Source: Alphaproteobacteria bacterium (GTDB lineage: Bacteria; Pseudomonadota; Alphaproteobacteria; UBA828). From it: DNA of 64,000 nucleotides. Position 1 is the first letter of the stretch, and each line of letters opens with the position of its first letter. The DNA lies in contig CBDCQT010000010.1 of assembly GCA_965220745.1 (NCBI GenBank), forward strand, positions 750,702 through 814,701, in the 5' to 3' direction. Of the stretch, positions 6,234 through 64,000 are shown in pieces. The position numbers and the translations under genes are program-made. A model generated the notes under the pieces. The model saw only the letters and a list, made by a program, of their open reading frames with translations, ran no database searches and was not told where the DNA came from.

Positions 6234-8077
6234 TGGGCCTGTTCTCACGCCGCAAGACGGTCTTCGTCGACGCGGACATCCTCGTCATCGGCGGCGGCAT
6301 GGCCGGCTGCGGGGCGACCTACGAAGCCGGCTACTGGGGACGCGACCTGAAGGTGGTCTGCGTCGAGAAGGCGAACATCGAGCGCAGCGGCGCGGTGGCC
6401 CAGGGCCTCTACGCGATCAACTGCTACATGGGCATGCAGTGGGACGAGAATCAACCCGAAGACCACGTGCGCTACGCCCGGAACGACCTCATGGGCCTGG
6501 TGCGGGAGGACCTGGGCTACGACATCGCGCGCCACGTCGATTCCACAGTGCACAAGTTCGAGGAGTGGGGCCTTCCCATCATGCGGGACCCGGAGACCGG
6601 GCGTTATCAGCGCGAGGGCAAGTGGCAGATCATGATCCACGGCGAGAGCTACAAGCCCATCGTCGCGGAGGCCGCGCGCAAGGCCGCCACCGAAGTCTAC
6701 AACCGGATCATGGTGACCCACCTGCTGACGGACCGGACGAAGCCCAACCGCGTCGCCGGCGCGGTCGGGTTCAACGTCCGCAGCGGGGAATTCTATGTCT
6801 TCCGCGCGAAGGCCGTCATCGTCTCCGCCGGCGGCGCGTCGCACATCTTCAAGCCGCGCGCGGTGGGCGAAGGCATGGGGCGCACCTGGTACGCGCCCTG
6901 GAGCAGCGCATCGGCCTACGCGCTGCCGATCCTCGTCGGCGCCAAGATGACCCAGATGGAGAACCGCATCGTCCTCACCCGCTTCAAGGACGGCTACGGC
7001 CCGGTCGGCGCCTACTTCCTCCATCTCAAGACCTACACCGAGAACGCCTACGGGGAGGAGTACGAGTCCAAGTGGTACGACCAGACCAAGGCGCTGGTCG
7101 GCGACTACATCGACATGCACCCGGTGCCCACCTGCCTGCGCAACCACGCCTTCCTGGAAGAGGTCAAGGCCGGCCGGGGGCCGATCCGCATGGTGACGAA
7201 GGAGGCCTTCGCCGATCCCCACAAGGAGCAGGTCGGCTGGGAGAATTTCCTCGGTATGACGATCGGGCAGGCGGTGGTCTGGGCCTCCCAGAACATCGAT
7301 CCCAAGCACACCAATCCGGAGCTGACCACGTCGGAACCTTACGTCATGGGCTCGCACGCCACATGCTCAGGCGCCTGGGCGAGCGGCCCGGAGGACTGCG
7401 CGCCGACCGACTACCAGTGGGGCTACAACCGGATGATGACCGTCGACGGGCTGTTCGGCGCCGGCGACACCATCGGCGGCTCCGCCCACAAGTTCTCGTC
7501 CGGGTCCTACACGGAGGGCCGGATCGCCGGCAAAGCGGCGGTCAACTACGTCAACGACCTGAAGGGCGAGCAGCCGCAAGTCAGCGAGAAAGAGTACGAG
7601 GACCTCAAGACGGTCATCTTCCAGCCCCTGGAGACCTACCGGGTCAATCGCAACGAGATCGTCGCGGGCACGGTCTCGCCGAGCTACATCCTGCCGATTC
7701 ACGGCCTTCAGCGCCTCGAGAAGATCATGGACGAGTACGTCGGCGGCATCAGCGCCGCCTACACGACGAACGAGCCCATGCTCACGCGCGGGCTGGAGCT
7801 GCTGGGCATGCTCAAGGAGGACCTCGACCACCTCGGGGCCGAGGACCTGCACCAGCTACAGCGGGCGTGGGAGCTGCACCACCGGGTGCTCGCCTCGGAG
7901 GCCGTGACCCATCACACGATGTACAGGACCGAGACGCGGTGGCCCGGATACTACTATCGGGGCGATCATCCGAAGCTGGATGACGCCGACTGGCACTGCT
8001 TCACCCTGTCTCGCTACGATCGTGACTCCGGCGAATGGGCCATGGAGAAGGCCCCCGTCTACCACATCGTGGATTAG
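6233..8077 (+). CDS. aprA: Adenylylsulfate reductase alpha subunit
   Basis: GGGMAGCG FAD motif, RSGAVAQGLYAIN, WQIMIHGESYKPIV, RFKDGYGPVGA, HKFSSGS and ETRWPGYYYR. Appears full length. Confidence 0.97.
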   Translation: MGLFSRRKTVFVDADILVIGGGMAGCGATYEAGYWGRDLKVVCVEKANIERSGAVAQGLYAINCYMGMQWDENQPEDHVRYARNDLMGLVREDLGYDIARHVDSTVHKFEEWGLPIMRDPETGRYQREGKWQIMIHGESYKPIVAEAARKAATEVYNRIMVTHLLTDRTKPNRVAGAVGFNVRSGEFYVFRAKAVIVSAGGASHIFKPRAVGEGMGRTWYAPWSSASAYALPILVGAKMTQMENRIVLTRFKDGYGPVGAYFLHLKTYTENAYGEEYESKWYDQTKALVGDYIDMHPVPTCLRNHAFLEEVKAGRGPIRMVTKEAFADPHKEQVGWENFLGMTIGQAVVWASQNIDPKHTNPELTTSEPYVMGSHATCSGAWASGPEDCAPTDYQWGYNRMMTVDGLFGAGDTIGGSAHKFSSGSYTEGRIAGKAAVNYVNDLKGEQPQVSEKEYEDLKTVIFQPLETYRVNRNEIVAGTVSPSYILPIHGLQRLEKIMDEYVGGISAAYTTNEPMLTRGLELLGMLKEDLDHLGAEDLHQLQRAWELHHRVLASEAVTHHTMYRTETRWPGYYYRGDHPKLDDADWHCFTLSRYDRDSGEWAMEKAPVYHIVD

Positions 8078-8142
8078 TACTACAGTTGCATATTAGTCGA
8101 TGATGTGATGTCCTCGCTGCGTGATGGACGGGAAGAGGGGGA

Positions 8143-9342
8143 ATGATGAGTATCGCGGCCTGGTCCGGTTCCCTCGTGGAGTGGGAGGGTGAGCTGTCGT
8201 CGCTGAAGGCGCGTCTTGGCCCGGTCTTCGGCCGGCGCGAGCTTCGCGAGACGGGAAGCGCGTTTCTGGATGGCCTCCTGTCGGGGATTGCGCGCAAGAC
8301 CGGATGGATGCTGTCGGAGCACGCGGGCTTTGAACGTCCCTGGCGGATCCAGGGCCTCCTGGGCCGAAACCGCTGGGATGCTGACGCGCTGCGCGACGAG
8401 GTGCGTGCCTATGTCGTGGAAGCGCTCGGTTGCGAGGACGGCGTCCTGGTGGTGGACGAGACAGGCTTTCTGAAGAAGGGGCGTCACTCGGTCGGGGTCG
8501 CACGCCAGTACACGGGGACTGCAGGCCGCATCGAGAACAGCCAGGTCGGTGTCTTTCTCGCCTATGCCGGCCGTTTCGGCCAGGCCCTGATCGACCGGCG
8601 CCTGTACTTGCCGAAGGATTGGGCCTCGGATGAGGCCCGGCGGGCGAAGACGGGCGTCCCGGCCGACCTGACCTTCGCCACCAAGCCCGCGCTGGCACGG
8701 GAGATGGTGGCGCGCGCCCTGGATGCGGGCGTTCCCTGTGCGTGGGTCCTGGCCGATGCGGTCTACGGGTCGGACTTCGGCCTGCGCTCCATGCTGGAGG
8801 AGCGAGGACAGGCCTACGTGCTGGCGATACGCAGCAACCATCATCTGCGCTTCATCGACGCCGCGGGCTTGATTGAAACGACCCCTGCTCAGATCGCCGA
8901 CGGTCTTGACCACGACGCCTGGTCGGCCCATGCCGCCGGCGAGGGCAGCAAGGGTCTGCGGCTCTACCACTGGGCGCGGTTCGCTCTGCCCTGGGACTGC
9001 CCCTCGGGCTGGCAACGCTGGCTCCTGATCCGCCGCTCCCGGAAAGACCCGGAGAAGCGGGCCTACTATCTTGTCTTCTGTCCCGTCGCCACGAGCCTTG
9101 CCGAGCTGGCAGGCGCCGCCGGTCTGCGCTGGACCATCGAGGAATGCTTTCAGCGGGCCAAGGACGACCTCGGCCTCGATCACTGCGAGGCCCGCTCCTG
9201 GCACGGCTGGCACCGCCACATGAGCCTCGTCATGGCCGCCGCCGCCTTCCTTGCCAAGGTGACTGCCGACATGCGCCGCATGGCATGCCGCAAACGGAAC
9301 AAATCGAGTCCAGTCATGGCAACAGCCGTCTCGCCGCCATGA
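8143..9342 (+). CDS. IS701-family DDE transposase
   Basis: VDETGFLKKGRHSVGVARQYTGTAGRIENSQVGV, ADAVYG and RWTIEECF...LGLDHCEARSWHGWHRH. Confidence 0.95.
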   Translation: MMSIAAWSGSLVEWEGELSSLKARLGPVFGRRELRETGSAFLDGLLSGIARKTGWMLSEHAGFERPWRIQGLLGRNRWDADALRDEVRAYVVEALGCEDGVLVVDETGFLKKGRHSVGVARQYTGTAGRIENSQVGVFLAYAGRFGQALIDRRLYLPKDWASDEARRAKTGVPADLTFATKPALAREMVARALDAGVPCAWVLADAVYGSDFGLRSMLEERGQAYVLAIRSNHHLRFIDAAGLIETTPAQIADGLDHDAWSAHAAGEGSKGLRLYHWARFALPWDCPSGWQRWLLIRRSRKDPEKRAYYLVFCPVATSLAELAGAAGLRWTIEECFQRAKDDLGLDHCEARSWHGWHRHMSLVMAAAAFLAKVTADMRRMACRKRNKSSPVMATAVSPP

Positions 9343-9509
9343 ACGCTCTCGTGCCGACAGTGCCGGAGGTCCGCCATCTGCTCGCCAAGCTCCTTCTCAG
9401 GCCGCCGATCTGTGCCGCGTTCGTCATGCAGTGGTCTCTCTGGCGACGAAGACACCAAGCCCGTGCCGCACGAGCCCATTACAAACATCGCCACAAAACG
9501 CAACTGTAG
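9339..9509 (+). CDS. Small IS701 terminal ORF (TVPEVRHLL...WSLWRRRHQ)
   Basis: ATGA-coupled to the transposase stop. Resembles the basic C-terminal tail of other IS701 transposases. Confidence 0.5.
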   Translation: MNALVPTVPEVRHLLAKLLLRPPICAAFVMQWSLWRRRHQARAARAHYKHRHKTQL

Positions 9510-9514
9510 TATTA

Positions 9515-10355
9515 GGCCGCGTACTCATAAAGTAATTGTCGGCGAGCGCGAATCATGATTCAAGCTCCCAAATTGCGGGAGCCTGCCGATGAACCGCTAC
9601 GACCTGACCGACTTCGAGTGGGGCGTGATCGAACCGTTGCTGCCGAACAAGCCTCGCGGCGTCCCCCGCGTGGACGACCGGCGCGTGCTCAACGGCATTA
9701 TGTGGGTGCTCCGTTCCGGCGCTCCCTGGCGGGACCTGCCGGAGCGCTACGGGCCCTACACCACCTGTTACAACCGCTTCAATCGCTGGCGCAAGAACGG
9801 GGTGTGGGATCGCCTTATGGACGCCATCGTTGAGGCTTACGACGGCGACATACAGATGATCGACAGTTCCAGCGTCCGGGTTCACCAGCACGCAGCGGGC
9901 TCAAAAAGGGGGGTCCGGATCGTTGCATGGGTCGTTCCCGAGGCGGACTGACGACGAAGATTCACACCGTAGTCGACGCCAGCGGACTGCCGCTCCGCTT
10001 CGCCTTGAGCCCCGGTCAGGCCCACGACAGCACGCTTGCCGGAGCTTTGCTGGACGATCACCTGCCGCCCGACAGTTTCGTGCTCGCCGACAAGGCCTAC
10101 GACGCCGATTGGATCAGGGCGATGATCGAGGCGCAGGATGCGGTGCCGATCATCCCCGATCGCAGCAGCACCACCAGGACCCATGCCTTCAGCCGCGTGC
10201 TCTATCGCCTGCGCAACCGCGTCGAGCGTTTCTTCAACAAACTCAAACAGTTCCGGCGCATTGCAACGCGCTACGAAAAACTCGCGGCCAACTACCTCGC
10301 CATGATCAAAATCGCCGCAATACGCATCTGGTTGCGTGCTAATGAGTCCACGCCC
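9515..10355 (+). mobile_element. IS5-family (IS427-like) insertion sequence (841 bp)
   Basis: Imperfect TIRs GGCCGCGTACTCAT / ATGAGTCCACGCCC, flanking TA dinucleotides (9513-9514, 10356-10357) and two overlapping transposase ORFs. Confidence 0.88.
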
Positions 10356-10358
10356 TAG
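9589..10358 (+). CDS. IS5-family transposase, orfA (9589-9951) plus orfB (9927-10358) joined by a probable -1 frameshift
   Basis: orfA: DLTDFEW, DDRRVLNGI, WRDLPERYG, IDSSSVRVHQH. orfB: GRSRGGLTTKIH, ADKAYD, RNRVERFFNKLKQFRRIATRYEK. Slippery run AAAAAGGGGGG at 9903-9913. Confidence 0.9.
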
Positions 10359-11792
10359 TACTACAGTTGCATATTAGTCGATGATGTGATGTCCTCGCTG
10401 CGTGATGGACGGGAAGAGGGGGAATGATGAGTATCGCGGCCTGGTCCGGTTCCCTCGTGGAGTGGGAGGGTGAGCTGTCGTCGCTGAAGGCGCGTCTTGG
10501 CCCGGTCTTCGGCCGGCGCGAGCTTCGCGAGACGGGAAGCGCGTTTCTGGATGGCCTCCTGTCGGGGATTGCGCGCAAGACCGGATGGATGCTGTCGGAG
10601 CACGCGGGCTTTGAACGTCCCTGGCGGATCCAGGGCCTCCTGGGCCGAAACCGCTGGGATGCTGACGCGCTGCGCGACGAGGTGCGTGCCTATGTCGTGG
10701 AAGCGCTCGGTTGCGAGGACGGCGTCCTGGTGGTGGACGAGACAGGCTTTCTGAAGAAGGGGCGTCACTCGGTCGGGGTCGCACGCCAGTACACGGGGAC
10801 TGCAGGCCGCATCGAGAACAGCCAGGTCGGTGTCTTTCTCGCCTATGCCGGCCGTTTCGGCCAGGCCCTGATCGACCGGCGCCTGTACTTGCCGAAGGAT
10901 TGGGCCTCGGATGAGGCCCGGCGGGCGAAGACGGGCGTCCCGGCCGACCTGACCTTCGCCACCAAGCCCGCGCTGGCACGGGAGATGGTGGCGCGCGCCC
11001 TGGATGCGGGCGTTCCCTGTGCGTGGGTCCTGGCCGATGCGGTCTACGGGTCGGACTTCGGCCTGCGCTCCATGCTGGAGGAGCGAGGACAGGCCTACGT
11101 GCTGGCGATACGCAGCAACCATCATCTGCGCTTCATCGACGCCGCGGGCTTGATTGAAACGACCCCTGCTCAGATCGCCGACGGTCTTGACCACGACGCC
11201 TGGTCGGCCCATGCCGCCGGCGAGGGCAGCAAGGGTCTGCGGCTCTACCACTGGGCGCGGTTCGCTCTGCCCTGGGACTGCCCCTCGGGCTGGCAACGCT
11301 GGCTCCTGATCCGCCGCTCCCGGAAAGACCCGGAGAAGCGGGCCTACTATCTTGTCTTCTGTCCCGTCGCCACGAGCCTTGCCGAGCTGGCAGGCGCCGC
11401 CGGTCTGCGCTGGACCATCGAGGAATGCTTTCAGCGGGCCAAGGACGACCTCGGCCTCGATCACTGCGAGGCCCGCTCCTGGCACGGCTGGCACCGCCAC
11501 ATGAGCCTCGTCATGGCCGCCGCCGCCTTCCTTGCCAAGGTGACTGCCGACATGCGCCGCATGGCATGCCGCAAACGGAACAAATCGAGTCCAGTCATGG
11601 CAACAGCCGTCTCGCCGCCATGAACGCTCTCGTGCCGACAGTGCCGGAGGTCCGCCATCTGCTCGCCAAGCTCCTTCTCAGGCCGCCGATCTGTGCCGCG
11701 TTCGTCATGCAGTGGTCTCTCTGGCGACGAAGACACCAAGCCCGTGCCGCACGAGCCCATTACAAACATCGCCACAAAACGCAACTGTAGTA
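10359..11792 (+). mobile_element. IS701-family insertion sequence, copy 2 (apparently identical to copy 1)
   Basis: Same TIRs and identical ORF translations at a constant 2281-bp offset. CTAG target duplication at 10355-10358 and 11793-11796. Confidence 0.93.
10424..11623 (+). CDS. IS701-family DDE transposase (copy 2)
   Basis: Translation identical to 8143..9342. Confidence 0.95.
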   Translation: MMSIAAWSGSLVEWEGELSSLKARLGPVFGRRELRETGSAFLDGLLSGIARKTGWMLSEHAGFERPWRIQGLLGRNRWDADALRDEVRAYVVEALGCEDGVLVVDETGFLKKGRHSVGVARQYTGTAGRIENSQVGVFLAYAGRFGQALIDRRLYLPKDWASDEARRAKTGVPADLTFATKPALAREMVARALDAGVPCAWVLADAVYGSDFGLRSMLEERGQAYVLAIRSNHHLRFIDAAGLIETTPAQIADGLDHDAWSAHAAGEGSKGLRLYHWARFALPWDCPSGWQRWLLIRRSRKDPEKRAYYLVFCPVATSLAELAGAAGLRWTIEECFQRAKDDLGLDHCEARSWHGWHRHMSLVMAAAAFLAKVTADMRRMACRKRNKSSPVMATAVSPP

Positions 11793-54295: not shown

Positions 54296-55063
54296 TCATG
54301 GATCGGAGTGAAACAGCGCCGGCTCCCTGGTGGCAAGGGTCGTCAGCATGGTGACGAGCTGGCCCAGGTGATGGCGCAGCGCCTGCTTGGCGCGCTCGGC
54401 ATCGCGGGCCTTGAGGGCGCCCACGATGGCTTCGTGCTCGCGATAGGTTTCCTGCAGTCGTCCCGGTGCCGGCAGCAGGAGCTGCCGCGTCCGGTCGAGC
54501 TGAGCCCGGACGCTCTCGGAGATCCGGCCAAGGCGGCGATAGCCGGTGAATGAGAGCATCAGCTCGTGCATCTGCGCGTCGTGCTCGTAGAAGCCGGTCA
54601 GGTCGCCGTCATCTAGCATCACCCGCTGAATTCTTAAGTTGCGCCTGAGCAATCCAAGCTGCTCGTCGGTGACGCTGCGAGCGACATGCTCGATCGCGGC
54701 AAGCTCCAGGGCCTCGCGGATGAAGGCTCCTTCCCGGATCTCCGCCATCGAGATGCGGGACACGTAGGTCCCGGCCTGAGGGTGCACCTCGACGAGGCCG
54801 TCGGCCGCAAGCCTGGCGATGGCCGCCGATACCGGCGAGCGCGACACGCCCAGCGCTTCGCAGACCTCCGCCTTGCGCAAGATCTCTCCCGGCGCATAGC
54901 GGAGCCCGACGATGGCGTTGCGCAGGCTCAAATACACGCGGTTGGTTAGCGTTCCCTCAAAATGCTCCAGGGTTTCCAGCCGCCCCGTCTCTGGCGTCTG
55001 CGGGACGGTGCCCGGCCGCGCATCTGGCGCAGCCTGGGCCACCTGAGCGACCCTAGCTTGCAT
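54296..55063 (-). CDS. GntR-family (FCD) regulator
   Basis: LGVSRSPVSAAIARL...PQAGTYV HTH and EHEAIV. Start uncertain. Confidence 0.88.
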   Translation of the reverse strand: MQARVAQVAQAAPDARPGTVPQTPETGRLETLEHFEGTLTNRVYLSLRNAIVGLRYAPGEILRKAEVCEALGVSRSPVSAAIARLAADGLVEVHPQAGTYVSRISMAEIREGAFIREALELAAIEHVARSVTDEQLGLLRRNLRIQRVMLDDGDLTGFYEHDAQMHELMLSFTGYRRLGRISESVRAQLDRTRQLLLPAPGRLQETYREHEAIVGALKARDAERAKQALRHHLGQLVTMLTTLATREPALFHSDP

Positions 55064-55064
55064 T

Positions 55065-55076
55065 CTAACATGTTAG
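55065..55076. promoter_or_regulatory. Palindrome CTAACATGTTAG, candidate GntR operator
   Basis: Perfect 12-bp palindrome at the head of the gntR-ABC operon. Confidence 0.5.
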
Positions 55077-55592
55077 CCCTGCCACCGTGACCTGTCAAAG
55101 CAGCCGGAGCGACCCGCGTGCCGGGCGTCGGCCGCACCAGGCTCGCGTGGCCCCACCGAACGACTCGCAATGTCGCCGTTTCGGCTCTTTCAACTCTGAG
55201 CGTTCTTGACGGACTCGACTCATTATGGCGTTCGGAGATGACGATTTAGCGCCCCTATCCCCCACCTATTTGGCACGCTCTACTTGCATAAATCTCTATG
55301 CGTAACGGGGCATAGAATTTGCTAGGCGGGGCATTTTCTTCGTCTGGCGCCGGGTGTTATCCAGGTCATGCGAGCAACGGGAGGGTGGACACCGTCGAGT
55401 GAATGAGAGAGCGGCCGCGAATCGCACACCGCATCAACCGAACAAGGCGAAAAACGCCTCTCACCACCGCGTTGCGCGTAATCGACCTCTCCGGCCATCT
55501 GCGCCCGCCAGGCGGCCCGACCGTGACCGCGTGAACGATGCTAACACCGCCACGCGCCTGTCCGACCGCTTTCGAAATTCGCTTTACGTTAA

Positions 55593-55606
55593 TGAAGAGG
55601 CCTCGT
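55593..55606 (+). repeat. 14-bp inverted repeat, left copy (TGAAGAGGCCTCGT)
   Basis: Exact reverse complement at 58657-58670. A second GAGGCCTCGT follows at 55612-55621. Confidence 0.7.
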
Positions 55607-55893
55607 ATCGGGAGGCCTCGTTTGTGGACTGCGATGGCCAGTTTACCAGCACGGGTCGGACGCTGTCTATAGCCATCGTATCGCCTAAAACAATTTGCCC
55701 GGGCCTACCCCAAGCAACCAACAGCGTAGGAAAGTCATTAGCGGTCCTTCGCCCCGCCGTCAACCCATTCGTTCCGTGACGGCTCCTCCGGAGCATCGGC
55801 TCCAACGTCGCCGCTCGGCCGCATGCCCCGCCGGCATTCCTATAGCCGCTTGGCATACTGCCAGGCAAGCACGCCACATGCGTGCGGCGAATG

Positions 55894-55905
55894 CAAGCGC
55901 CGAAT
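55894..55905 (+). repeat. 12-bp direct repeat CAAGCGCCGAAT, left copy
   Basis: Exact copy at 58437-58448. Both copies lie within ~10 bp of the ends of the integrase pair. Confidence 0.7.
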
Positions 55906-55910
55906 TGCGG

Positions 55911-57191
55911 CTACAGCACGAATTCTCGCGATGCTCTCTCGCCGGTAACCGCCGCAGGTGGGCAGACTCTGCGGGGTGTTACGGGCGCGAAGATATCCTC
56001 CGCAATTCCTTCCGCGACTCTTACGGCAGCGTCCTTGACGGCGTCTCGTGTGAGGTGGGTGTATCGGGCGGTGGTCTGGATCTGGGCGTGGCCGAGCAGC
56101 TTGGCGATCACCGGCAGGCTCTCGCCCAGCGCCAGCGCACGGCTGGCATAGCTGTGCCGCAGGTCGTGGATGCGCACGTCGTCGAGACCGGCGCGGGCGC
56201 GCACCCGGCGCCAGGGCTCGAACAGGCTGGAGAGCCGGGCGCCCGGCTTCGCGCCGGGGATCACCCAGGGGTTGCCGGGCACCTTGTCAATGCCAGCCAG
56301 AACCGCAGTCGCCTCGGGCGAGAGCGAGACCGTGCGCGGGCCGGTCTTGCTGTCGCTGAGATGCAGCTCCTGCGCCTCCAGTCGCACGTCCTCCCAGCGC
56401 AGCGTCAGGATCTCGTTGCGCCGGCAGCCGGTGAGCATCAGCAGACGGAGCGCCGCCGCTGCGTAGGGGGAGATGCGCCCCTCCGCCTCCGTCTCGTCCA
56501 GCACGCGGCCGAGCCGCTGGAACTCCGCGTCGGTCAGGAAGCGCTCGCGCCGGCGCGTCCGGTATTTTGGGGCAGAGCGGCAGGGGTTGCTGATCTCCCC
56601 CGCCACGCCCCAGGCGATGGCCTGGTCGATCATGCGCGAGAGGGTCGCGATCACCAGGTTGGCCATGGCCGGGCGGTCGCTGAGTGAATGCTGCAGGTCG
56701 GCGACCTGGCCACGGCCGAGGGATGAGACGGGACGGGTGCCGAGGGCGGGCACGATGTAGCGCTCGATGGCAAGCCGGTACTGGGCTGCTGTGGTGGACT
56801 TGCAGCGCACCGCCACGTGTTCGCGCAGATAGCGCTGGGCGAGGGCCGCGACGGTAATGCTCTCGGTCTTCTGTGCCTCGGGGACGGGCTCCTCGCCCGC
56901 CCTGATCCGCGCGATGATCAGCGCCGCGCGCCGGCGCGCCTCACTCGCCCCGATCACTCCGTGCCGGCCCACGGTGATGCGCTTCGTGCCTTGGGGCCCC
57001 CGCGTCTGCACCACGTAGACCTTGGCGCCGGAAGGGTAGACCCGGACGCCGAAGCCGGTGAGCGCCCGGTCCCACACCACCGTGTCCCTGCCCACAGGGA
57101 GCGCCGCCACGGTGTGCTCCGTGATCGTCCCCTGCGCGGGAAGTGCCGAGGGCACTGCCGAGGGAAGTGCCGAGGGCACTGCCACGTTCAT
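55911..57191 (-). CDS. Tyrosine recombinase/integrase with N-terminal arm-DNA-binding domain (int2)
   Basis: WDRALTGFGVRVYPSG arm domain. Catalytic residues in GCRRNE, SKTG, HDLRH, LGH and TTARY. Confidence 0.92.
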   Translation of the reverse strand: MNVAVPSALPSAVPSALPAQGTITEHTVAALPVGRDTVVWDRALTGFGVRVYPSGAKVYVVQTRGPQGTKRITVGRHGVIGASEARRRAALIIARIRAGEEPVPEAQKTESITVAALAQRYLREHVAVRCKSTTAAQYRLAIERYIVPALGTRPVSSLGRGQVADLQHSLSDRPAMANLVIATLSRMIDQAIAWGVAGEISNPCRSAPKYRTRRRERFLTDAEFQRLGRVLDETEAEGRISPYAAAALRLLMLTGCRRNEILTLRWEDVRLEAQELHLSDSKTGPRTVSLSPEATAVLAGIDKVPGNPWVIPGAKPGARLSSLFEPWRRVRARAGLDDVRIHDLRHSYASRALALGESLPVIAKLLGHAQIQTTARYTHLTRDAVKDAAVRVAEGIAEDIFAPVTPRRVCPPAAVTGERASREFVL

Positions 57192-58426
57192 GATGAGCCG
57201 CTGTCCTTATCGGCAGTGCCCTCGGCAGCACCATCGGTGCCGATGTCGGCACCGATGCTGCCGCCGACGCGGGCGGCGGAGAGGCGCTCGGTCTCGCGCG
57301 CGAGGTGGGCGTAGCGCGCGGTGCTCTGGATGTCGGCATGGCCCAATAGCTTGCCGATCATGCTCAGGCTCTCGCCCGCAGCCAGCGCACGGCTTGCGTA
57401 AGAGTGACGGAGGTCGTGGATGCGCACGTCGTCGAGGCCCGCGTGGGCGCGGAGCCGATACCAGTCTGCGGTGATGGTGGCGAGGTGGGTACCCGGTTTC
57501 TTGCCGACCATGACCCAGGGGTTGTCCGGCACACGGGCGATGCCTGCCAGCACCGTCTCTGCCGTGGGGGTGAGGGGGACCATGCGGGCGCCGGTCTTGC
57601 CGTCGCGCAGCCGGAACTCGCCGGCGGTGCGGTCGACATCGTCCCAGCGGAGCGTGAGGATCTCGTTGAGCCGGCAGCCTGTGAGCATGAGCAGGCGCAG
57701 GGCGGCGATGGCGTAGGGCGAGACCGCGCCCTCGATCCCCGCTTGCGCCTCTGCTTCCGCTTCGACCAGCGCCTGACCCAGCCTGCGGTACTCGTCGCGG
57801 GTGAGGAAGCGCTCGCGCTTCCTCTCCTTGTATTTGCGCACGCCTTTGCAGGGGTTGGTACCGTCCGCCACCAGGCCCCAGGCGCAGGCCAGGGAGAACA
57901 TCTTCGACAGCACCGAGAGCGCGCGGTTGGCGGCACGGGGAGTCTCGCGGAGCCGGTAGTGCAGCGCCGCCACGTGCGCGGTCTCGACCATGGCAAGGGG
58001 CATCATGCCGAGGGCAGGCAGGATGTGGTTCTCCAGCGAGCCCCGGTAGATGCCGGCGGTATGGGCGTTGCAGTTCTGGGCCACGTGGGCGCTCAGGTAG
58101 CGGGCCGCGAGGTCGGCGACGGTGGCGCCGGCCTGGGCAGGCGGTGCTGCGGGCTCCTCGCCCCGCTTGATGCGGTCGATGGCCTGGGCGGCGCGGAGCC
58201 TGGCCTGTGTCGTCGTAAGCTCGCCGTGGGTGCCGAGCGTGACGCGCCTGGGCCCACCCTGGGCCCGGCTCTGAACCACGTAGACCTTGCGGCCTGAGGG
58301 GTAGACGCGGACGCCGAAGCCCGCCAGCTCGCGGTCCCAGAAGATCCGGTCCCTGCCCGCGACCGCGAGACGGTCCACCTCCCGACCGCACAGCGTCAAC
58401 TCACTACGGCGCGGCACAACCGTCAC
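57188..58426 (-). CDS. Tyrosine recombinase/integrase with N-terminal arm-DNA-binding domain (int1)
   Basis: WDRELAGFGVRVYPSG. Catalytic residues in GCRLNE, GKTG, HDLRH, LGH and STARY. ATGA overlap with int2. Confidence 0.92.
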   Translation of the reverse strand: MTVVPRRSELTLCGREVDRLAVAGRDRIFWDRELAGFGVRVYPSGRKVYVVQSRAQGGPRRVTLGTHGELTTTQARLRAAQAIDRIKRGEEPAAPPAQAGATVADLAARYLSAHVAQNCNAHTAGIYRGSLENHILPALGMMPLAMVETAHVAALHYRLRETPRAANRALSVLSKMFSLACAWGLVADGTNPCKGVRKYKERKRERFLTRDEYRRLGQALVEAEAEAQAGIEGAVSPYAIAALRLLMLTGCRLNEILTLRWDDVDRTAGEFRLRDGKTGARMVPLTPTAETVLAGIARVPDNPWVMVGKKPGTHLATITADWYRLRAHAGLDDVRIHDLRHSYASRALAAGESLSMIGKLLGHADIQSTARYAHLARETERLSAARVGGSIGADIGTDGAAEGTADKDSGSS

Positions 58427-58436
58427 ATCCCAAGGA

Positions 58437-58448
58437 CAAGCGCCGAAT
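58437..58448 (+). repeat. 12-bp direct repeat CAAGCGCCGAAT, right copy
   Basis: Exact copy at 55894-55905, followed by a second CAAGCGC. Confidence 0.7.
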
Positions 58449-58656
58449 AAACGGCAAGCGCACCGTCATCACTTCGCAACCGACCGGAATCACCCGCGCG
58501 AGCGCGAAGGCGCGCGTCCGCCGACGCGCGCGTTTCTGACGCCGCATGGAGTACAAAAAATCAACGTAGATAGAAGGGATTACGTCTGACTCACGCGGTC
58601 CTGCAGGCTCACGCCGGAGACGCTCATTGCAGGTTGTCAGTTCCAGGTCGCCTCGC

Positions 58657-58670
58657 ACGAGGCCTCTTCA
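58657..58670 (-). repeat. 14-bp inverted repeat, right copy (ACGAGGCCTCTTCA)
   Basis: Reverse complement of 55593-55606, ending 4 bp before the GAGGAG RBS-like sequence of lipoprotein 1. Confidence 0.7.
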
Positions 58671-58692
58671 AAATGAGGAGAGCCTGGAAGCC

Positions 58693-60783
58693 ATGAAGAA
58701 GACAAAGCTGACTCGCAGTTTGATGGCAGCGGTCTCGATCGTTGCCCTTTCCGCCGTCATGTACGGCTGCGTCCACAGCGGTGACGGTCCGACACAAGCC
58801 GAGCTCGATGCAGCGGCTGCGGCCCAGGCCGCTGCCGAGGCCGAAGCGGCTGCGGCTGCGGCTGCAGCCGCTGCCGCTGCCGAGGCTGAAGCGGCTGCCG
58901 AGGCCGAAGCCGCTGCCGCTGCCGAGGCTGAAGCGGCTGCTGCGGCCGAAGCTGCTGCTGCTGCCGAGGCCCAGGCTGCTGCCGAGGCCCAAGCGGCTGC
59001 GGATCTGGAGAACACCCAGATGGCGGCTGCAGATGCGGCCGAGGCCGCGATGACGGCATCGGACAATGCCGCGGAGTCGGCCGAAAGTGCCGCGGACGCG
59101 ACGGCGACACTCGCGACTCTGCAGACCGGCAAAGACGCGAACGCCGACGAAATGGGGGGCAACGAGGCCGCCATGGCGGCCCAGGCAGCTGCCGACGACG
59201 CGGCGGAAGCGGCGAGCGACGCCGCGGATGCTGCCGCGGAAGCGGAGGCGGCGACCACCGGCGCGGACGCCGAAGCGGCACTGCGCATGGCATTGAACGC
59301 GCAGGATGCTGCCGAGGCGGCCGAGGCGACGGCGGCCGAGATGGCCGAGGCGGCAATCGAAGCCGCCAAGATGGAACTCCATATCGACGGTACCATGAAG
59401 TGGGTCGATATTGTGGATGACGACGGCAATGTCACCGGCATGAGTTCCGTCGACGCGTCGACTGGCATGCTGACCAGGGGCACCGCCGGGGTTGACCTGA
59501 GCATCACCGGCCTGCTGCGTGGTATGGAGCCAAGCCGCTCGACAGCGGCGAGTGACGGGCAGCACTTCATCCAAGGTACCGGTGTAGACGGCAAGACGGG
59601 CGAAGTGGCGTACAAGCAGGCCAAGGAAGCTGGTTCGGTCGAAATTGGCAAGGTGCTCGACACGTCGGACGACGCGCACCGCCTCATGCTGATCACCAGT
59701 CATCAACGCGATAAGACAGTGCGGGTCTTTGTCGATCGCGAAGACACACGTGTAAATGCTGCGGATGGCGCGACCGCGGTTCTCAATCCCAACATTGCGG
59801 TGACCATTGATACGGTTACCTACAACGTATCAACCTTGTTGGATGGCGCCACCGCAACGTCGATCGGCATGTACTATGAGGCAACGGACCGCATCGAAGC
59901 TAACGATGCGTTTCCCGTCGTCCCCGACGTCGTGGGCACTCCGGCGACCACAGCAAACCAGCTTGACGCCTATGACCGGGTAAAAGTGAACGATGCCGAT
60001 GCCGAGGGTAACCCGGGCGAGGGTGCCCCGGCCAAGGGTGTCGAGATCTTCGAGATCACTGGTATCAACAACGCCGCTGGCAACCCGGTGGTCGCTTACG
60101 CTCGGCTCGAGCGAACGACGGAAACGCCCACCGACGTCATGGCCACTCCGTTCTATCAGCTCGTGGATATCATCGCCGACGCATCGATGACCGACGGTGG
60201 CGATGCCAATTTGACCGCAGACGATTTGCACCCAGTGACGGCGGACATCGCTGTGGCAGCAGACTACAAGCACATCCACTTCGGCGTGTGGGCTGGCCTC
60301 GATGAGGCCAACAAGAGGACCGGTGCGCAGGATCTCGCCGAACTCGGCATCGGTTTCGTGCAGAACATCGAGGGCGGCGTGACCGAAGGCTCGATCACAG
60401 GCACCGCCACGTTCAGAGGCGACTGGGCTGCGTCGGTGCGCAGGAAGTACGCCTCGGATGGCGAGAAGGGAGCCATCAAGCTGGACGACGGTCAGGCGAT
60501 GCTGACCGCGAACTTCTCGGAAGACGAGTTCACGGGCCTTCTGACGGGCCTTGCCACGCTGGAAGGCAGCCTTTCCGGGAACGAGTTCATGGGCACGTCG
60601 GCGTCGAAAATCACGCACCCCGATCTCGAAGCGACGGGCACGTTCGAGGGCTCGTTCAGCGGTGCCATTTACGGGGCGGAAGGTGCGGAGGCCGGCGGTG
60701 TCTTCAGCTTCGACGGCGACGAAGCCGGAGCCTTCGTCGGTGCTTTCGGTGGCAGGGACGTGGACCAACCCGTAAAGGACTAA
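58693..60783 (+). CDS. Surface lipoprotein 1: Ala/Glu-rich stalk plus TbpB-like C-terminal beta-barrel (T11SS cargo candidate)
   Basis: Signal peptide with lipobox MYG|C, AAAEAEAAA repeats, and C-terminus FSGAIYG..EAGGVFSF..FVGAFGG. Confidence 0.82.
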   Translation: MKKTKLTRSLMAAVSIVALSAVMYGCVHSGDGPTQAELDAAAAAQAAAEAEAAAAAAAAAAAAEAEAAAEAEAAAAAEAEAAAAAEAAAAAEAQAAAEAQAAADLENTQMAAADAAEAAMTASDNAAESAESAADATATLATLQTGKDANADEMGGNEAAMAAQAAADDAAEAASDAADAAAEAEAATTGADAEAALRMALNAQDAAEAAEATAAEMAEAAIEAAKMELHIDGTMKWVDIVDDDGNVTGMSSVDASTGMLTRGTAGVDLSITGLLRGMEPSRSTAASDGQHFIQGTGVDGKTGEVAYKQAKEAGSVEIGKVLDTSDDAHRLMLITSHQRDKTVRVFVDREDTRVNAADGATAVLNPNIAVTIDTVTYNVSTLLDGATATSIGMYYEATDRIEANDAFPVVPDVVGTPATTANQLDAYDRVKVNDADAEGNPGEGAPAKGVEIFEITGINNAAGNPVVAYARLERTTETPTDVMATPFYQLVDIIADASMTDGGDANLTADDLHPVTADIAVAADYKHIHFGVWAGLDEANKRTGAQDLAELGIGFVQNIEGGVTEGSITGTATFRGDWAASVRRKYASDGEKGAIKLDDGQAMLTANFSEDEFTGLLTGLATLEGSLSGNEFMGTSASKITHPDLEATGTFEGSFSGAIYGAEGAEAGGVFSFDGDEAGAFVGAFGGRDVDQPVKD

Positions 60784-62797: not shown

Positions 62798-64000
62798 ATG
62801 CGCAGTCTCTGTGCCGCCCTGCTCCTGTTACTCGCCCTTCCCGCCGCCGCTCAAGACCTGGATCTTCCCGCCCTGTTCAACGAGGGCATGAGGGCGGTCG
62901 AGCAAGCTTACGCGGAGCAAGACGAGGACCGCCGCGACGCATTGCTTGACGAGGCGATCGCCACCTTCCGCGAGATGCTGGTGGCGGATCCCGGTCTGGT
63001 CCGCGTCCGCCTCGAGCTCGCCCGCGCCTTCTTCCTCAAGGGGGAGGACTCCCTTGCCCGGCGCCATTTCGAGGCCGTGCTGGCGGGTGGCGTGCCGGAG
63101 CCTGTCGCGGTCAATGTCCATGCCTTCCTTGCCGAGATTCGCGCCCGCCGCCGCTGGAGCATTCAAGGCGGCTTCGCGCTGGCGCCGGACTCCAACATCG
63201 GCGCGGGCTCCGAGGAGCGAACCATCCTTATCCCGGTCTTCGGCCAACCCCTGCCGTTCGAGCGGGACGCGGAGGAGCTGACGTCGTCGGGCATCGGCGT
63301 CTCGGTCTGGGGCGGGGCGGAGTACCAGGTGCCGATCGGGGAGCGGCTCAGGCTGCGCGCGGGCGGCGATGCGGCCCGGCGGGAGTACTCGGGCTCGAAG
63401 TTCGATCAGCTCTTCCTCGGCACCCATCTCGGCCCGCGCTGGCTGGTGGACCGGAACACGGAGGGGAGCCTGCTGGCGAGCGCGCGGCAACGCTGGATCG
63501 GCGCCGCACCGGACAATCGCGAGCTGGGCGCGCGCCTGGAGGTGGGGCGCCGGCTCACCCCGCGGGTGACGGCGTTCGTAAACGCCTCCTGGCACGACCG
63601 GCACTACCGGACGCGGACCGAGCTGGACGGGCCGGTGTGGGACGCATCGCTCAGGGGCTTCTGGGTGGTGACGCCGACGGTGCGGGCGGAGCTTTCGGCG
63701 GGCTACGCGCGGGAGCGGCCCGAGCGCGAGCGGGAGCGTAACGCCAGCCGCTGGCTGGGCGCGGGGGTTACGGTGGCGCTGCCGCTGGGCTTCACCGTGG
63801 GCGGCGGCGGCGAGGTGCGCTGGACCGACTTCGAGGACGAGTGGTTCCCGCACACGCCGGTGGGCGAGGACCGTGAGGACCGCACGCGCAGCGTCCGGCT
63901 CTCGGTCCACAACCGGGGCATTACGGTGATGGGCTTCAGCCCGGCGATCGTGGCGGTGCACGAGGAGCGGGAGACCAACGCGCAGCTTTACGACTACGAG
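62798..64000 (+). CDS. Slam/DUF560 surface lipoprotein assembly modifier (type XI secretion translocon), 3'-truncated by the window
   Basis: Not in the ORF track because there is no stop in the window. Manual translation: MRSLCAALLLLLALPAAAQD..., TPR-like VRVRLELARAFF, WSIQGGFALAPDSNI, then amphipathic beta-strands ending ...ERETNAQLYDYE. Confidence 0.85.
   Translation, partial: MRSLCAALLLLLALPAAAQDLDLPALFNEGMRAVEQAYAEQDEDRRDALLDEAIATFREMLVADPGLVRVRLELARAFFLKGEDSLARRHFEAVLAGGVPEPVAVNVHAFLAEIRARRRWSIQGGFALAPDSNIGAGSEERTILIPVFGQPLPFERDAEELTSSGIGVSVWGGAEYQVPIGERLRLRAGGDAARREYSGSKFDQLFLGTHLGPRWLVDRNTEGSLLASARQRWIGAAPDNRELGARLEVGRRLTPRVTAFVNASWHDRHYRTRTELDGPVWDASLRGFWVVTPTVRAELSAGYARERPERERERNASRWLGAGVTVALPLGFTVGGGGEVRWTDFEDEWFPHTPVGEDREDRTRSVRLSVHNRGITVMGFSPAIVAVHEERETNAQLYDYE

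Follow-up and report, generated by a model that had tools for sequence, protein, structure and literature searches.

A genus-conserved inverted repeat around a tyrosine recombinase pair: a candidate invertible promoter cassette beside a Slam surface-lipoprotein operon

Can a pair of integrase-like enzymes flip the DNA in front of a surface-lipoprotein operon and so decide whether the operon is expressed? The question is raised by a locus of an alphaproteobacterium (GTDB UBA828; assembly GCA_965220745.1, here genome G000, 4.82 Mb in 13 contigs) in which two overlapping tyrosine recombinase genes, intA and intB, lie between inverted copies of a 14-bp sequence, directly upstream of lipoprotein genes and a gene for a Slam outer-membrane protein of the type XI secretion system (T11SS). 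We analyzed a window of 64,000 nucleotides, positions 750702-814701 of contig C10 (CBDCQT010000010.1), whose right end is also the end of that contig; coordinates given without a contig name are those of the window. The public sequencing runs that contain window sequence are mostly sponge metagenomes.

The answer that we favor takes the repeats to be the conserved cores of hairpin sites bounding a cassette of ~3.1 kb. From left to right, the cassette would consist of a hairpin, an outward promoter-like site (P_out), a terminator-like hairpin, the two leftward-reading genes intA and intB, the region upstream of intB, and a second hairpin; IntB and IntA, translationally coupled, would recombine the inverted sites and thereby flip the segment between them. 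In the arrangement assembled here (state A), P_out would read away from the lipoprotein–Slam operon, into poorly conserved DNA toward a gene for a GntR-type regulator, and in the lipoprotein leader the repeat would pair with the Shine–Dalgarno (SD) sequence, leaving the operon OFF. In the arrangement found in relatives (state B), P_out and a full 8-bp hairpin stand directly before the ribosome-binding site (RBS) and the lipoprotein gene, which would be ON. We judge the chances to be roughly even that the locus is such an invertible promoter cassette, bounded by the inverted repeat (IR) and run by IntB and IntA. It is somewhat doubtful that flipping would still continue in this strain today, and we put forward only tentatively the full version of the idea, in which an arm-binding integrase pair flips its own 3-kb cassette and, by moving a promoter together with one arm of the leader, sets both transcription and SD accessibility.

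The inverted repeat and the promoter-like site inside it

The left copy of the repeat, TGAAGAGGCCTCGT at 55593-55606 on the plus strand, has its exact reverse complement at 58657-58670, and these two are the only exact copies of the 14-mer in the whole genome. Going inward, the match extends to 21 of 28 bp, while on the outer side of the right copy the sequence GAGGAG (58675-58680) begins after 4 nt. A preliminary description of the locus, made from its sequence alone, had reported the exact repeat, its inward extension and its distance from the RBS-like GAGGAG, and our recount agrees with it on all three. The same description had put the probability of such a match at about 1e-3, which is also what resampling gives: of 5000 first-order Markov draws based on the two intergenic gaps (847 and 266 nt), six held an exact inverted repeat of at least 14 bp (P=0.0012). 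Among 110 non-cognate pairings of flanks from the 11 integrase pairs of this genome, none had an inverted repeat of 14 bp, the maximum being 13.

Could two GC-rich intergenic regions nevertheless match in this way by coincidence? For that reading speak the post hoc discovery of the repeat and its 8-bp core, GAGGCCTC, which is itself a palindrome and is not over-represented, with 118 copies in the genome where composition leads one to expect ~185; against it speak the resampling result and the invariance of both copies from species to species. The left site is identical in all eight aligned syntenic or paralogous loci and the right site in all five, so that the comparison of homologous loci proposed in the preliminary description comes out in favor of the repeat. 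Exact matches of the 14-mer number 40, in 13 of the 21 genomes of the genus, against none for the reversed control, and an exact scan of 28 genomes from other genera of the order gave no match. It is the conservation that decides: the 14-bp IR is real and exact, and chance, ruled out by these data, has a negligible place among the explanations. An exact IR that flanks a segment and is conserved across a genus is one of the marks by which an inverton may be recognized.

The left site had also been likened to the core sites of tyrosine recombinases, with two arms on either side of a spacer. The layout is as described and it is conserved, the arms of the hairpin being invariant and the loop base variable; what qualifies the comparison is that a hairpin of this kind also has plausible roles in RNA, to which we return below.

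Inside the left repeat, at a distance of 20-75 nt, lies the conserved sigma-70-like match that we call P_out, recognized by sequence consensus. It consists of a -35 element TAGACA (55669-55664), an 18-nt spacer and an extended -10 element TGGTAAACT (hexamer 55645-55640), and in our scan it reached 9 of 12 consensus matches plus the TG. It is directed leftward through the hairpin, and the terminator-like hairpin 3' of intA (55717-55695) precedes it. Written on the plus strand, its two blocks, TGTC[CT]ATAG for the -35 and AGTTTA[CT]CA for the extended -10, are present in 18 of 18 aligned loci of the genus, where they are the most conserved parts of the whole alignment, and again in 8 of 8 metagenome loci. 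Across the whole genome the -35 block has just three occurrences, in the window, at C8:6044 and at C9:17667, and each time it is found 50-70 nt from a GAGGCCTC hairpin. P_out may be an active promoter, and the stretch that inversion would bring before the lipoprotein RBS, as the preliminary description had it, does contain a promoter-like site that points outward and is conserved.

Both orientations among related genomes

If the cassette inverts, relatives should hold the alternative junctions. We oriented the 40 sites of the genus on the 14-mer and classed them by their flanks: on the outer side, either an end in TAA (LO CTTTACGTTAA or other) or the reverse complement of a lipoprotein RBS (CTCTCCTCATT[CT]); on the inner side, either the promoter side (CGGGAGGCCTCGTTTGTGGACTGC...) or the intB side. 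A TAA end is joined to the promoter side at 11 sites and an RBS to the intB side at 14; the reverse combinations are an RBS joined to the promoter side (7 sites) and a TAA end joined to another inner flank (7 sites, six of them ~250 nt from an intB start). One last site, in genome G002, has an RBS with no integrase nearby. TAA and RBS ends are thus each found with promoter and intB sides, as would be expected if inversion had produced all four classes of junction. The first two classes define state A, the type of the window, and the other two define state B, which reads TAA–hairpin, intB and intA rightward, terminator, promoter, hairpin and RBS. The flipped arrangement anticipated in the preliminary description, with intB and intA leading to promoter, hairpin and RBS, is therefore present in related genomes.

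The two states can also be compared directly. In BLAST alignments of the window with five state-B loci (L066, L067, L070, L074 and L075), the integrase genes and 55593-55909 are inverted relative to 58650-58691, and cassettes that are 80-84% identical occur in both states. All seven site pairs lying no more than 7 kb apart, from six genomes, converge around an integrase pair, and at an eighth locus, L075, the partner site has one mismatch. The breakpoints fall at the repeat: the metagenome contig L078 and the state-B locus L084 of genome G020 are 93.8% identical over 308 nt that begin with the first base of the 14-mer and run inward, but they are unrelated outside it, and such a break in homology bears the marks of recombination at the repeat. 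That relatives hold the segment either way round, and that the breakpoints coincide with the repeats, is another mark of an inverton, and the reaction would be catalyzed by the recombinases that the cassette encodes. The lipoprotein open reading frames are intact in five of five state-A loci examined.

Some stronger or simpler versions of this picture were tried and dropped. L078 and L075 were considered as one locus in both orientations, but their outer flanks share only ~20 nt and a distant 720-nt block, too weak a likeness; L076 and L078 come from a single metagenome assembly and, at 76% identity, are separate paralogues. Homology of LO with the other TAA-type flanks is unconvincing past the TAA itself, and these flanks are grouped by position only. 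A putative 'geneX' upstream of the TAA-type sites is an open frame of just 37-67 codons and probably not a gene, and a toggle with two outputs is not supported, as the genes on the LO side vary between loci (GntR, aldo/keto reductase).

A separate arrangement was noticed on contig C8 (1-17118), where a second integrase pair (8358-10772) lies between the arms of a 5966-bp inverted duplication that are 99.98% identical. The duplicated unit is a lipoprotein–Slam–lipoprotein–Slam operon; one RBS joins a hairpin and a promoter-like region, the other joins the DNA upstream of intB. The duplication may either be real or be the assembler's product from a population holding both orientations.

Fixed orientations and the lipoprotein leader

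Several observations, however, weigh against the proposed switch, among them the uniformity of its orientation. The orthologous group of the window is in state A at 10 of 10 loci (seven from the genus and three from metagenomes). In a tree of the promoter side, the window clusters with six other loci of the genus, all in state A, and the other clade holds four state-A loci, to which its seven state-B loci are paraphyletic; sister pairs from different species always share their state, and the minimum number of state changes is two. Such uniformity fits rare, ancient inversions as well as it fits a strongly biased switch. The loop of the state-A left site is 2 nt longer than that of state-B sites, and none of the loci can therefore be derived from another by a flip alone. 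The two sites of the window share the 14 bp only, with GTATCGG-GAGGCCTC as loop and second arm of one against GTGCGAG-GCGACCTG in the other; state-B site pairs have 24-25 bp of identity, and tyrosine recombinases are hindered by spacer heterology. Conservation does not end at the repeat, either: the 25-nt LO block lies outside the left copy and is present, in several genomic contexts, at all 11 sites of the genus that continue from the 14-mer into the promoter region. Furthermore, P_out is a consensus match only, and IntA and IntB are, by their sequence, P4-like integrases with an arm-binding domain and not invertases of the FimB/FimE type. Finally, an IR above background was found at one of the 11 integrase pairs of this genome, the other 10 being at background level in a scan that took in 600 bp on either side; the hairpins on C8 and C9 lie farther out.

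The preliminary description had called for reads mapped in both orientations; our check used Logan contigs of four public runs (X18, X19, X20 and X1), from which rare variants are dropped by construction. Contigs bridge the right repeat in X18, X19 and X20 and the left repeat in X1, in the reference orientation only, with the opposite orientation seen in none of them, and among the 15 of 21 contig joints listed there is no strand-changing joint. Contigs of X18-X20 break at 55605-55611, and the bin with the hairpin has 3-4 times the depth of its neighbors; we attribute this excess to a conserved core that other strains or loci have in common, do not take it as a sign of inversion, and see in it support for neither side. 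The self-contained phase-variation switch of the preliminary description is thereby supported in part: the conserved IR, the promoter-like site and the two orientations within the genus speak for it, and the single orientation in the contigs and in the orthologous group speaks against it.

The remaining points against the switch come from the RNA. The minus-strand RNA of the left site is predicted to form an 8-bp stem, and a fold of the lipoprotein leader is predicted in which UGAGGAG(A)GCCUCG takes the 14-mer (ACGAGGCCUCUUCA) as its pairing partner, so that the SD would be buried; in the window, it is the 3' half of the right repeat that would pair with the SD GAGGAG, with P(SD paired)=1.0. 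The leaders can be described by three arms, the first from the inner side of the site, the second being the 14-mer and the third holding the SD. With arm 1 mostly degenerate, as it is on the intB side, P(SD paired) is at least 0.95 in 12 of 15 leaders; with arm 1 perfect, as on the promoter side, this is so in 3 of 7. The models thus give a tendency, not a clean split between the two kinds of leader. No Rfam match was found in 55000-58800. Genome G002 has, at locus L095 (C6 ~9870-10150), a promoter-like region, a hairpin, the 14-mer, an SD, a lipoprotein gene and Slam, integrase-free within 20 kb, and this is the single 14-mer in that genome; the leader consequently exists independent of the cassette. 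All in all, it is plausible, as far as the predicted folds go, that the 14-mer also has a role in RNA.

Taken further, the same observations suggest a rival explanation. The repeats would be copies of a hairpin module acting in RNA or transcription, and the two arrangements seen in the genus would go back to ancient rearrangements that have become fixed; the leader, made of a promoter and three arms, would be a translational attenuator or stabilizer, a terminator-like copy would stand elsewhere, and the integrase pair would serve some other role, such as island integration, or none here. The burial of the SD and its unequal frequency in the two kinds of leader are in line with this, as are the integrase-free leader of G002, the orientation that is fixed inside orthologous groups and the second orientation that no contig showed. 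The ends of the cassette, however, share 14-25 nt of inverted identity in both states, with the loop and the non-palindromic TGAA included, and this is more than a generic hairpin would need; homology breaks exactly at the 14-mer; and the z-scores of the leader folds are weak, ranging from -0.8 to -2.0. Roles in RNA and in recombination are not mutually exclusive, and we consider the hairpin module unlikely as the account of the locus.

The recombinases, related systems and the surrounding genes

For the inversion reading, much depends on the enzymes. IntA and IntB are 54% identical, and their genes overlap by 4 bp, the stop of intB lying over the start of intA. Both proteins match PF00589 (Phage_integrase; 7.8e-22 and 2.9e-22) and carry an arm-type N-terminal domain, PF13356 (Arm-DNA-bind_3; 1.8e-09 and 5e-11). 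The catalytic R, K, HxxR, H and Y positions aligning to XerD are kept in both; the motifs TGCR, HDLRH, LLGH and ARY, all invariant between the two, align to R148, H244/R247, H270 and Y279 of XerD. Two coupled tyrosine recombinases with their catalytic motifs are therefore present, as first described. The accompanying analogy with FimB and FimE has to be given up, at least for the enzymes: against the models of FimB/FimE-type DNA invertases (NCBIfam NF007370/NF007371), IntA and IntB score 16.9 and 18.6 bits, far under the cutoffs of 221-222.

In terms of architecture, the locus has counterparts in several known systems. In Salmonella, flipping of the Hin segment connects a promoter to, or disconnects it from, the adjacent surface-antigen operon; the likeness to Hin/hix lies in a recombinase gene and an outward promoter inside an IR-bounded segment beside such an operon, and the difference is that Hin is a single serine recombinase, whereas here two arm-binding tyrosine recombinases are found in ~3.1 kb and the inversion is one that we infer. 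The fimS element of Escherichia coli is 314 bp long with an IR of 9 bp, and the genes for FimB and FimE, enzymes devoid of the arm-binding domain, lie outside it. Two paralogous tyrosine recombinases, a short IR, non-identical flanking half-sites, a promoter and an output at the cell surface are common to fim and our locus, but IntA and IntB are encoded inside the element and have the arm-binding domain. In the vsa/HvsR and vpma/Xer1 systems of Mycoplasma, a tyrosine recombinase stands beside lipoprotein families with highly conserved 5' ends, and the recombination sites are within these 5' ends, so that gene bodies are shuffled. Here, too, a recombinase lies beside lipoprotein genes, and paralogous lipoprotein 5' ends in G000 are 85-90% identical; the site, however, precedes the RBS, and the recombinase genes form part of the segment. 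Hin is described as a serine invertase acting at hix, and the fim switch as a dual-recombinase system (PMC11868660). Integrases of P4/CP4-57-like islands share the Arm-DNA-bind_3, SAM-like and catalytic domains; our locus differs in having no tRNA target, a coupled pair of enzymes and flanking repeats that are inverted, and no direct-repeat attL/attR was found. A tRNA search of the 64-kb window gave none, in keeping with the earlier remark that none is adjacent, and the sole second copy of the core is inverted, which is not the pattern of a tRNA-targeting integrative island.

A different kind of mobility has to be weighed as well. Adjacent, co-transcribed tyrosine recombinases between terminal IRs are a trait of RIT, SE, GInt and Tn554 elements (PMC10214605, PMC3414803), and SEs are described there as having imperfect IRs of 13-19 bp together with intA and intB (PMC10214605). 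The int–int segment might then be a transposon that moves by tyrosine recombinases, comparable to RIT, SE or Tn554 elements and inserting by lipoprotein leaders either way round. Beyond the likeness of its terminal IRs to those of SEs and RITs, such a transposon would agree with the many paralogous integrase pairs per genome and with a cassette occurring in both orientations, and the integrase-free leader of G002 could be its empty site. Near-identical copies, on the other hand, are absent: the other integrase pairs of the genome are ~67% identical in DNA and lack the repeat, homology stopping short of it. Only two open reading frames lie between the repeats, and no third recombinase, no partner of the Tfp, Srap or TnpC type and no other accessory gene of SE, GInt or Tn554 was found, nor were there signs that the segment is mobile. 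The locus is syntenic beside the same GntR gene in several species, conserved sequence runs on outside the left repeat, and the indel boundary relative to genomes G014, G004 and G020 is at ~54328 rather than at the repeat. We regard a transposon as improbable.

Should the cassette flip, Slam/T11SS lipoproteins would have their first phase switch run by recombinases; among the matches listed by a full-text literature search, there was no paper on Slam or type XI secretion with invertible DNA or phase variation. It would also mean that P4-type integrases have been domesticated as invertases, combining a Hin-like architecture with tyrosine chemistry, and that programmed rearrangement of DNA is a means of surface variation in uncultured symbionts of sponges; with several cassettes per genome, the outcome in sponge-associated Rhodospirillales would be a combinatorial variation of surface lipoproteins. 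The hairpin core of 14-25 bp with its conserved flanks is a concrete, testable site, and finding the four junction classes in one genus offers a way to recognize invertible elements without read data.

Table 1. Features of the locus, in window coordinates
Feature	Position	Strand	Basis or remark
GntR/FCD-family regulator gene	54296..55063	-	Pfam FCD 2.8e-27, GntR 7.6e-18
Conserved outer-left flank (LO), GCTTTC-N9-CTTTACGTTAA	55568..55592	+	terminal TAA abuts left repeat
Left 14-bp repeat copy, TGAAGAGGCCTCGT	55593..55606	+	sequence
Hairpin / core-like site, GAGGCCTC-GTATCGG-GAGGCCTC	55597..55619	.	sequence; fold prediction
P_out, outward promoter-like site	55640..55669	-	consensus scan and conservation
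Terminator-like hairpin, between intA stop and P_out	55695..55717	-	consensus scan only
intA, tyrosine recombinase, 426 aa	55911..57191	-	Pfam; XerD alignment
intB, tyrosine recombinase, 412 aa	57188..58426	-	open reading frame; Pfam
Inner-right region (RI), intB start to right repeat	58427..58656	.	holds ACCGTCATCACTTCG at 58463
Right 14-bp repeat copy	58657..58670	-	plus strand = ACGAGGCCTCTTCA
Predicted RNA stem CUCUUCA/UGAGGAG, lipoprotein leader	58664..58680	+	minimum free energy fold
Lipoprotein 1, 696 aa	58693..60783	+	ATG at 58693
Lipoprotein 2, 588 aa	60878..62644	+	open reading frame
Slam (T11SS) outer-membrane protein gene	62798..64000	+	Pfam SlipAM PF04575 2.9e-19; cut by contig end

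For arm-type sites, there are some leads. The ACCGTCATCACTTCG motif of RI can be extended to CCGTCATCACT, which has four copies in the genome, all in cassette flanks; CCGTCATCACT and CGCTACAC are candidate arm-type motifs, as a lead only. A second kind of outer flank (RO2; C9:17420-17700 and loci L075, L070 and L066) has GAATGAGGAGAGCCTGG after the 14-mer and no lipoprotein start. It carries the motifs CGCTACACCC and CCGTCATCACT, also present in the regions upstream of intB, and these two may be binding sites of the arm type.

The integrase genes themselves show a further pattern. Where they encode HDLRHSYA, intA and intB are near-identical, and a recurrent breakpoint falls in this stretch, in the window at 56138 and 57395-57406: contigs of X18-X20 join 56138 to 57395, skipping 1256 bp, with six other letters between, and several loci of genome G005 lose homology at this breakpoint as well. 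Judging from the sequences, this suggests hybrid intA/intB genes formed via homologous recombination. The intB stop and the intA start are embedded in a 12-nt repeat (57135-57252), where a perfect palindrome of 18 nt is found at 57144-57161 and 57210-57227. In a syntenic locus of genome G009 (L073, contig C2), a 3.7-kb insert (7305-10982) between intB and the right repeat encodes an open reading frame of 1225 aa with a Druantia DruA domain (7.8e-37). Genes for P4-like integrases form around ten more tandem pairs in G000, besides one trio, and relatives have many more; examples lie at C3:182274-184658, C13:706011-708419, C9:24977-27372, C10:166921-168969, C10:316399-318660, C12:31426-35192, C12:182692-184949, C12:465483-467729 and C5:128471-130708.

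In the assembled orientation, the GntR/FCD gene is the first gene 3' of P_out, and it is syntenic in genomes G008 and G009. Synteny with G014, G004 and G020 stops at ~54328, where their left flank joins DNA that maps to C12:~402200 here; the GntR gene, the integrase pair, the lipoproteins and Slam thus sit in a variable region. An island with two ends was considered and rejected: the far flank of these three genomes maps inside C12, and no matching end was found.

On the other side of the cassette, the PF04575 gene adjoins the lipoprotein genes, as is expected of a Slam (T11SS) surface-lipoprotein operon. Lipoprotein 2 gave no Pfam or NCBIfam match and has a paralogue on contig C8 (47% identity). 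The signal peptide, the lipobox cysteine and the 5' end of lipoprotein 1 are kept across paralogous loci, and its C-terminus weakly matches the NCBIfam model slam_lipo, at 35 bits, under the cutoff of 80. Its N-terminus (58798-58983) is encoded by degenerate, GC-rich repeats of 9-24 nt and is rich in Ala and Glu.

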